This document shows, piece by piece, positions 13,925-15,016 of a stretch of 31,365 nucleotides of DNA. The translations under genes and the position numbers were made by a program. Every line of letters begins with the position of its first letter. Position 1 is the first letter of the stretch. Source of the stretch: Bacteroidota bacterium (GTDB lineage Bacteria > Bacteroidota > Rhodothermia > Rhodothermales > Rubricoccaceae); the NCBI GenBank assembly GCA_039208155.1, contig JBCCRG010000001.1, positions 1-31,365 of the forward strand, read 5' to 3'. Below the pieces are notes generated by a model that was not told the DNA's origin, made no database searches, and was given only the letters and a program-made list of their open reading frames with translations.

Positions 13925-15016
13925 ATGACACAACGACCACAGCATTCTGAACGGCACGACCGCGAGCAGTATTTCTTCGACGTCGCCACCCGCGATGCCC
14001 TCGTCGAAGCCCTGGCAGACTACGACCACGTCTGCAGTCTCTGCGCACCGACGCTCGCGGAAGCCCTGGCTAAGCGCGGGCAGCAGGTTACCCTCCTCGA
14101 CCTCGACGAGCGCTTTGTGCACGTACCAGGTTTCCGGCGGTACGATCTCACCCGACCGGACTGGATCGAGACGAAGTTCGACGTGATCGTGTGCGATCCG
14201 CCATTTTTCACGGTGTCGCTCACGCAACTGCACCGCGCCCTCGCGATGCTTGCGCACCATCGAGTTGAGGTGCCGGTGCTGGTGTCGTACCTCACCCGTC
14301 GCGACCGGAAGCTCCTGACCACGTTCGCTGACCGTGGCTTTCGCCCCACCGGATTCTTCCCATCGTACGCGACCGTCGCCGACACGGAGAAGAACGAGAT
14401 CCAGTTCTACGGTACTGCACCGCTTCCAGAGCGCGGCAGCAGCGCCTGGATGGACCGCGTGGCGAAGCGCACGAGCAAGTTCTTGAGCCTCGTCCTCCGT
14501 CACGACCCGGACCGCATCGGCATCACGCTGGAGGCGGGAGGGTGGACGGATACGGAGGCCCTGCTCACCGCAGCCAACCAGCACGGTGTGGCGCTCAATC
14601 GGGCGCTGCTTGAGCACGTCGTCGCGACGAATGCAAAGCAGCGGTTCGCCCTCAGCGACGACGGCGCGCGTATTCGGGCCAACCAGGGGCACTCCGTCCA
14701 GATCGACCTCGGCCTCACGCCCGTTGCGCCACCCGCCGTGCTCTTCCATGGCACCGCGCGCAATAACCTCGAGTCAATCCAGGCGCAGGGCCTAGTCCGG
14801 AGGCAGCGGCATCACGTTCACCTTTCCGCCGACGAAGCCACTGCGCGGACAGTTGGACAGCGGCACGGCACGCCGGTCGTGCTGCGCGTCGAAGCCGCGC
14901 GGATGCACGGTGATGGGCACGTCTTCTACCGCTCCGAAAACGGCGTCTGGCTGACGGAGGCCGTGCCGCCCGCCTACCTCACTCTACCCGACGGCTCTCC
15001 TCCTCCGACGCCGTAG
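13925..15016 (+). CDS. Fusion: N6AMT2/Efm5-like SAM methyltransferase + RNA 2'-phosphotransferase (Tpt1/KptA)
   Basis: N-half: EQYFF, CSLCAPT, LLDLDERF, FRRYD and FDVIVCDPPFF. C-half from M at 14450: SKFLSLVLRH, KQRF, IRANQGHS, LFHGT, RHHVHLS, SENGVWL. No stop between the halves. Confidence 0.85.
   Translation: MTQRPQHSERHDREQYFFDVATRDALVEALADYDHVCSLCAPTLAEALAKRGQQVTLLDLDERFVHVPGFRRYDLTRPDWIETKFDVIVCDPPFFTVSLTQLHRALAMLAHHRVEVPVLVSYLTRRDRKLLTTFADRGFRPTGFFPSYATVADTEKNEIQFYGTAPLPERGSSAWMDRVAKRTSKFLSLVLRHDPDRIGITLEAGGWTDTEALLTAANQHGVALNRALLEHVVATNAKQRFALSDDGARIRANQGHSVQIDLGLTPVAPPAVLFHGTARNNLESIQAQGLVRRQRHHVHLSADEATARTVGQRHGTPVVLRVEAARMHGDGHVFYRSENGVWLTEAVPPAYLTLPDGSPPPTP

Follow-up and report, generated by a model that had tools for sequence, protein, structure and literature searches.

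The window, that is, the whole 31,365-nucleotide stretch analyzed here (positions 1 to 31,365 of contig JBCCRG010000001.1, assembly GCA_039208155.1), comes from a metagenome-assembled genome (MAG) of a Bacteroidota bacterium of the family Rubricoccaceae and contains, at 13925..15016 on the forward strand, a complete gene in which a methyltransferase is fused to Tpt1/KptA, an RNA 2'-phosphotransferase. As a first-pass annotation of this DNA had proposed, the two domains lie in one open reading frame (ORF); it is uninterrupted, has 363 codons plus stop and matches both PF10237 and PF01885 in Pfam. The encoded protein comprises, with all coordinates on the forward strand, (i) an S-adenosylmethionine (SAM)-dependent class I methyltransferase domain of the EEF1AKMT1/ZCCHC4 family, PF10237 (residues about 10–153, 13952..14383), identified with Pfam and by the genome family search; (ii) within this domain, the catalytic motif IV, D91-P92-P93-F94 (DPPF), read from the sequence at 14195..14206; (iii) a linker, TAPLPERGSSAWMDRVAK (residues about 166–181, 14420..14467); and (iv) a Tpt1/KptA domain, an RNA 2'-phosphotransferase dependent on nicotinamide adenine dinucleotide (NAD+), with the tetrad R192, H193, R240 and R295 (residues 182–345, 14468..14959). 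The AlphaFold model of the two-domain protein has a mean predicted local distance difference test score (pLDDT) of 93.7 and a predicted template-modeling score (pTM) of 0.86; in this model, a predicted helix (residues 173–193) spans the linker into Tpt1. NCBI names the fusion proteins of the genus merely 'RNA 2'-phosphotransferase'.

Conservation of the fused gene

Among 41 related genomes searched, all six that belong to the genus, which consists of marine Bacteroidota, carry the fusion without stops and with 78–94% identity, and in other genera of the family the Tpt1 half alone finds a match (54–59% identity). The linker is short and in frame across the aligned orthologues of the genus. It holds Met176, the likely ancestral start of Tpt1, which is replaced by Thr in one same-genus genome (G005), so that a separate translation of Tpt1 from an internal start is not conserved. 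Pairwise Nei–Gojobori comparisons of the orthologues, whose synonymous divergence (dS) reaches about 1.0–1.2, gave ratios of nonsynonymous to synonymous divergence (dN/dS) of 0.09–0.21 for the methyltransferase half and 0.10–0.16 for the Tpt1 half; both halves are thus under similar purifying selection.

The first-pass annotation had raised the alternative of a lost stop codon. More generally, two adjacent genes might have been merged by a lost stop or by an assembly or sequencing error in a MAG, an explanation that could draw on two facts: the two domains are encoded separately outside the genus, and a database 'fusion' of PF10237 with an RTC domain (P0158), considered as a second case, had to be rejected as a frameshifted gene call that merges a methyltransferase gene with the RtcA gene next to it, on a contig of 1.6 kb. 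The orthologue comparison refutes this explanation, to which we attach practically no credence: six independent assemblies show the same in-frame fusion, with a conserved linker, no stops and purifying selection, and the sole adjacent arrangement seen elsewhere (locus L023, described below) has the opposite gene order. Its presence in all six genomes and the purifying selection on its two halves show that the fusion is a genuine gene that has been maintained, neither a lost stop nor an assembly error.

In a library of 1.84 billion protein representatives, the N-terminal half has 294 relatives at E ≤ 1e-3, of which one representative, from the genus itself, is joined to Tpt1, and no PF10237–Tpt1 fusion was found there outside the genus. 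A search of the longer homologues for other architectures returned none beyond five same-genus fusion clusters; this search was word-based and hence constitutes weak evidence.

Catalytic residues and folds of the two halves

The C-terminal half matches PF01885 (PTS_2-RNA) over residues 182–345 (E 6.9e-48, 163.5 bits for a cut-off of 26, profile positions 5–176 of 177) and the NCBIfam model NF002014 (RNA 2'-phosphotransferase) with 263 bits for a cut-off of 239. Its best sequence match in the PDB is the Tpt1 of Runella slithyformis (7kw8, E 7e-54), with which it aligns without gaps over 171 residues at about 60% identity. The Arg-His-Arg-Arg tetrad is intact: R192, H193, R240 and R295 align with R16, H17, R64 and R119 of 7kw8, all four of which are essential in the Runella enzyme (PMC6097658). 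The two-lobed Tpt1 fold, which the Runella enzyme shares, is also found in the model (Foldseek matches to 6e3a/6ede with E 1e-17, target template-modeling (TM) scores of 0.90–0.91 and a root-mean-square deviation (rmsd) of 1.8 Å), and the model superposes on Clostridium thermocellum Tpt1 with a TM score of 0.90 and an rmsd of 1.8 Å. We take the C-terminal half to be a catalytically intact 2'-phosphotransferase, which, as predicted from its sequence and model, should use NAD+ against an RNA 2'-phosphate. Healing of terminal 2'-phosphates was considered as its main role and rejected: the Runella enzyme, the closest one characterized, removes internal 2'-PO4 and is 'inept' with phosphates at a terminal 2' or 3' position (PMC6573784). 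The stand-alone Tpt1 genes of sister genera have no adjoining RtcB gene or tRNA array.

Elsewhere in the database, the fusion partners of Tpt1 are PF10021/TIGR02452, Macro, NADAR, Nudix and ADP-ribosylglycohydrolase, which we take to be ADP-ribose-processing domains; because most other Tpt1 fusions involve domains of this kind, the methyltransferase–Tpt1 architecture is unusual. These partners could suggest that the methyltransferase half parallels them and acts on a small molecule. We find this quite improbable, given that this methyltransferase clade also occurs, at loci free of Tpt1, with RtcB and RtcA, neither of which yields an ADP-ribose product (see below), and that no characterized PF10237 member is known to act on small molecules.

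The N-terminal half matches PF10237 (N6-adenineMlase) over residues 10–152 (E 3.4e-19, 69.6 bits for a cut-off of 23.2, profile positions 2–154 of 166), and all remaining methyltransferase families of Pfam have E > 0.01. The proposal that it belongs with Efm5 and N6AMT2 (EEF1AKMT1), and not with the DNA adenine methyltransferases, is thereby borne out: the families of the latter (Dam/MethyltransfD12, N6_Mtase, N6_N4_Mtase) yielded no Pfam match at E ≤ 1. Likewise, no Hen1-related family appears among the Pfam or NCBIfam matches of the fusion protein, and no zinc-finger family is matched in Pfam, the N-terminal half being a core of ~165 residues that runs directly into Tpt1. PHROGs returned nothing for this half, and a PDB sequence search with it alone nothing significant.

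An orphan DNA N6-adenine methyltransferase, fused to Tpt1 incidentally and without functional coupling, would agree with the first name of the family, N6-adenine methylase, which was given for its DPP(F/Y) motif, and with the link between PF10237 proteins and DNA N6-methyladenine in Phytophthora (PMC6211444). However, besides the absence of Pfam matches to DNA methyltransferase families, the sole PADLOC match (mad2, E 1e-4) is weak and limited to the methyltransferase motif, no restriction gene lies nearby, the clade is repeatedly linked to RNA-repair genes in other phyla, and the equal purifying selection acting on both halves argues against an accident. We consider a DNA methyltransferase of this kind highly improbable.

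The motifs EQYFF, C..C(A)P, LD.DERF, YDL..P, CDPPFF and SYL.RR are common to the fusion domain and its bacterial homologues, and those listed in the first-pass annotation are present and conserved across 29 of these homologues. More specifically, E14, C40, P42, D61, C90, D91 and P93 are invariant in the 29 proteins, and P92 and F94 are conserved in at least 90% of them; the segment L58-D59-L-D61-E-R-F holds the acidic residue after strand 2 that is predicted to bind the SAM ribose. This conservation indicates intact motifs for SAM binding and catalysis. The DPPF motif is typical of nitrogen-methylating enzymes. In ZCCHC4, substitution D276A in this motif abolishes activity (PMC6954407). Within the genus, two orthologues show local changes in the domain: in G002 (L002), a Ser replaces the otherwise invariant Cys90 directly before DPPF, and a stretch of eight residues (SYxTVADT) is missing from the final third of the domain in the orthologue of G003 (L006).

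The closest solved fold to the AlphaFold2 model of the N-terminal domain (pLDDT 91.9) is that of ZCCHC4 (6uca; VIA-align Z 19.0, rmsd 2.5 Å over 172 residues), followed by METTL5 (Z 13.4), the generic class I methyltransferase background lying at Z 11–13. With Foldseek, ranks 1–6 are all chains of 6uca (E 1.6e-9), TrmM and PrmA coming at about 1e-6, and a profile built from the bacterial clade finds 6uca (E 0.0056) across the QYFF, C..P and LDID.RF motifs. ZCCHC4, the human methyltransferase that produces N6-methyladenosine (m6A) at position 4220 of 28S rRNA (m6A4220), shares with the bacterial domain its fold, the DPPF motif and the QY.F, C..P and LDID.R(F/Y) motifs; it differs from it by rRNA-binding zinc fingers, a Cys/His-rich region at the N-terminus and CCHC fingers at the C-terminus (PMC6954407), whereas the bacterial domain consists of the core alone, and by an identity of only 16–19%. 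EEF1AKMT1 (N6AMT2) and yeast Efm5, the eEF1A Lys79 trimethyltransferases, also belong to PF10237, have the DPP(F/Y) motif and are close in size to the stand-alone bacterial forms described below. Among human methyltransferases, N6AMT2/EEF1AKMT1 resembles ZCCHC4 most closely (Pinto et al., PMC6954407); with these two enzymes, the PF10237 family has one characterized RNA m6A writer and one protein-lysine writer.

RNA-repair genes around the fusion and its stand-alone homologues

In the same-genus genomes covering the region, the gene order is as follows: tRNA array, 279-residue protein, vWA protein, RtcB, DIP1984/DUF6847 protein and methyltransferase–Tpt1 fusion, after which comes a convergent gene for a TonB-type outer-membrane protein. 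At the head of the cluster in the window lies an array of 16 tRNA genes (5596..8014, + strand; ARAGORN and Rfam), flanked by an ordinary housekeeping context, namely thiC (2541-4469) and its upstream thiamine pyrophosphate riboswitch (4547-4648), both on the − strand. Every same-genus genome has such an array ahead of the RtcB cluster, with a gene content that varies (L011, L012, L013). Next come, all on the + strand, the 279-residue protein, devoid of Pfam or NCBIfam match (8117..8956); a 503-residue vWA-domain protein in the position of Ro60 (9123..10634), which has only weak vWA matches in Pfam and is 93–94% identical in same-genus genomes; the RtcB RNA ligase (10931..12409; PF01139, E 2e-84), whose synteny is conserved in the genus; and the DIP1984/DUF6847 protein (12600..13031; PF20935, E 2.4e-52; NCBIfam NF038048). 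The latter separates RtcB from the fusion wherever a same-genus genome covers the interval; the G003 contig is too short. Finally, a hydrophobic ORF without family match lies on the − strand between the DIP1984 gene and the fusion (13299-14048), its 5' end overlapping the start of the fusion. G002 (97% identity) and G001 (65%) also have this ORF, whereas G004 and G005 do not, the gap between DIP1984 and fusion being about 320 nucleotides there; the ORF looks like a lineage-specific insertion and may split the operon. A look-up of public sequencing runs listed three DNA runs of one marine metagenome study, one of them perhaps from the source sample, and none of RNA.

The N-terminal half of the fusion falls in a distinct prokaryotic clade of stand-alone PF10237 proteins of 160–195 residues, to which it is 40–56% identical and which are scattered over Acidobacteriota, Myxococcota, Chloroflexota, Planctomycetota, Abditibacteriota, Pseudomonadota, Bacteroidota and a few archaea. 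The label 'eukaryote-type' given to the domain in the first-pass annotation is therefore right as to the Pfam family, that of Efm5 and N6AMT2, but too narrow, since the domain lies in a distinct prokaryotic and phage clade and since the family also holds the RNA m6A enzyme ZCCHC4. PF10237 exceeds its cut-off in one of 401 phylum-sampled genomes, the very genome studied here, and in none of 14 control genomes; no Tpt1 gene lies near the four sub-threshold PF10237 matches in those 401 genomes. One PF10237 cluster of the ESM Atlas (68 members) is 40% viral (Uroviricota), indicating that phages also carry PF10237 methyltransferases.

With a profile derived from a nine-sequence alignment, we gathered 39 stand-alone loci outside the genus, six of which have RNA-repair genes within 8 kb of the methyltransferase gene. 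The arrangements are (i) RtcB, methyltransferase and RtcA in L037 (Tepidisphaeraceae); (ii) Ro60 upstream, then methyltransferase and, 8–11 nucleotides further on, RtcA in L042; (iii) Ro60 upstream, methyltransferase and RtcA in L035 (Phycisphaerales); (iv) Ro60, RtcB, a homologue of the 279-residue protein of the window and methyltransferase in L047 (Planctomycetota); (v) RtcB, an AAA ATPase and methyltransferase in L044; and (vi) in L023, from another Bacteroidota MAG, Tpt1, its TGA stop and, three bases later, methyltransferase, which is the reverse of the domain order of the fusion. L023 also has, 7 kb off and on the other strand, a five-tRNA array and an RtcB that is 72% identical to that of the window. 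In a Bacteroidota MAG outside the genus, a five-tRNA array lies directly upstream of RtcB (L066:10658-11076). In L035 and L047, clear TROVE and Ro60-vWA proteins occupy the place of the vWA protein of the window. The 279-residue protein is 41% identical over 270 residues to its counterpart in L047 (tblastn, L047:3922-4686, within an ORF at 3901-4689) and looks like a conserved, uncharacterized component of the repair system; no DIP1984 homologue was found in the Planctomycetota loci.

Gene order varies within the repair-linked lineages, and the linkage persists. A maximum-likelihood tree divides the repair-linked genes between a well-supported Phycisphaerae clade (96/93) and a Bacteroidota/Rhodothermota group of weak support, to which the fusion belongs. 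On two further contigs encoding homologues, the neighbours are unrelated. In a Kofleriaceae MAG, a stand-alone methyltransferase gene adjoins a gene for a 555-residue protein with a weak HD match and a strong P-loop-kinase (AAA_33) match (L052:2998-4665, − strand), a combination reminiscent of HD-Pnk, the end-healing enzyme in the repair cluster of Runella.

A possible methylation step in RtcB/Ro60 repair

We somewhat favour the interpretation that the fusion is a bifunctional enzyme of an RtcB/Ro60-type RNA-repair cluster and that both halves act on the same RNA. RNA is, on balance, also the likelier substrate of the methyltransferase. An RNA N-methyltransferase is favoured because the partners (Tpt1, RtcA, RtcB and Ro60) act on RNA ends or damaged RNA, because the closest solved relative methylates RNA, and because DPPF marks N-methylation. 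The shared target would be a damaged or re-ligated RNA, whether a tRNA from the neighbouring array, an rRNA or a Y-like RNA. The Tpt1 half would clear a 2'-phosphate from this RNA and the methyltransferase half would write an N-methyl mark on it, most likely N6-methyladenosine as in ZCCHC4; this mark may shield the repaired site against renewed cutting, as the mark of Hen1 does in Pnkp/Hen1 repair, and the fusion would hold both steps on one molecule. The coupling to RNA repair suggested in the first-pass annotation fits the gene context in the window and the occurrence of stand-alone homologues beside RtcB, RtcA, Ro60 and Tpt1; beyond that context, we infer the substrate, the N6-adenine chemistry, the protective role and the physical coupling of both reactions.

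The N-terminal half could instead be a protein-lysine methyltransferase similar to Efm5/EEF1AKMT1, acting on EF-Tu, RtcB, the Ro60-like protein or Tpt1 itself, in which case the fusion would merely recruit it. PF10237 is indeed named for the eEF1A Lys79 methyltransferase (PMC8807479, PMC11514484), NCBI labels a bacterial member from Syntrophus 'protein-lysine N-methyltransferase', and an RNA-repair context cannot tell an RNA target from a protein target. EF-Tu, put forward as a possible target in the first-pass annotation, is disfavoured by its sequence in the genus. In G004, EF-Tu reads ...HVEYETDNRHYAHVDCPGH, with a Glu 12 residues before the Asp of the DxPGH motif (DCPGH); this Glu aligns with Lys79 of eEF1A, which lies 12 residues before Asp91. 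The tuf gene was not found in the incomplete MAG that contains the window, so that the comparison rests on G004. The bacterial proteins thus differ from Efm5 and EEF1AKMT1 in that the EF-Tu of the genus appears devoid of the target lysine and in that their clade is linked to RNA-repair genes. Moreover, the closest solved fold is that of an RNA m6A enzyme, and all the fused or adjacent partners (Tpt1, RtcA, RtcB) act on RNA ends. A lysine methyltransferase seems to us rather unlikely, though far from negligible.

Several points weigh against a bifunctional enzyme whose two halves act on RNA. EEF1AKMT1/Efm5, after which the family is named, has a protein lysine as its target, and according to Pinto et al. 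the targets of the family are not predictable from sequence, because the nearest human relative of ZCCHC4 is EEF1AKMT1 (PMC6954407). ZCCHC4 being the sole family member of solved structure, the 'closest fold' is biased towards it. The grouping seen in the tree means that the association with repair genes rests on two or three lineages and not on six independent events, and about 31 of the 39 stand-alone homologues show no recurrent or RNA-related family among their immediate neighbours. The opposite-strand ORF occurs at three of the five same-genus loci that cover this interval (the window, G002 and G001), where the fusion is perhaps not co-transcribed with RtcB. Finally, RtcB ligation leaves no 2'-phosphate for a Tpt1 to remove, and the nearest characterized Tpt1, that of Runella, does not remove terminal 2'/3'-phosphates (PMC6573784).

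The proposed enzyme can be compared with three known systems. The Tpt1 gene of Runella lies in an RNA-repair cluster and adjoins a gene for a predicted SAM methyltransferase–HIT protein (PMC6097658); here, the methyltransferase is fused to the N-terminus of Tpt1 and there is no HIT domain, and the ligase is RtcB, whereas Runella has an ATP-dependent ligase with HD-Pnk. The likeness to Hen1 concerns the proposed role only, that of a methyltransferase whose gene accompanies those of an RNA ligase and of the machinery that heals the ends, the methyl mark of Hen1 making the repaired junction resistant to re-cleavage (PMC6097658); Hen1 belongs to an unrelated family, sets a ribose 2'-O-methyl mark and not an N-methyl mark, and is associated with an ATP-dependent ligase and not with RtcB. 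Finally, the Planctomycetota loci, which string Ro60, RtcB and RtcA together, resemble the Salmonella-type rsr-yrlBA-rtcBA operon (Ro60, Y RNAs, RtcB, RtcA), as does the window with its Ro-position vWA protein and RtcB, except that Tpt1 occupies the place of RtcA in the window. We found no description of a methyltransferase or a Tpt1 in the Salmonella-type operon, and the word 'methyltransferase' is absent from PMC7790460.

Both domain families, methylases as an element of RNA repair (Hen1) and the pairing of Tpt1 with a methyltransferase–HIT gene in Runella are already known. We found no description of a PF10237–Tpt1 fusion or of PF10237 in Ro60/RtcB/RtcA operons in the literature searched, which left out Burroughs & Aravind 2016 (NAR, RNA repair systems). 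A broader and more tentative idea, which we deem possible but short of probable, is that the prokaryotic PF10237 clade is an unrecognized component of RtcB/Ro60 repair that N-methylates (e.g. as m6A) repaired tRNA or rRNA. This would amount to a second, Hen1-independent 'repair and immunize' mechanism, and the Tpt1 fusion would, in addition, hint at the natural RNA on which bacterial Tpt1 acts, a substrate long sought.

Bacteria have no yeast-type tRNA ligase, and what Tpt1 does in them is a recognized puzzle (PMC6573784), for which the fusion partner and the fixed gene neighbourhood described here offer concrete candidate substrates. The fusion protein is small and confidently predicted and should express easily, which makes the hypothesis directly testable. 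At the same time, a prokaryotic branch of the EEF1AKMT1/ZCCHC4 family that has hardly been studied gains a function-rich gene context, and methylation may be one of the steps of RtcB/Ro60 repair, as it is in Pnkp/Hen1 systems.

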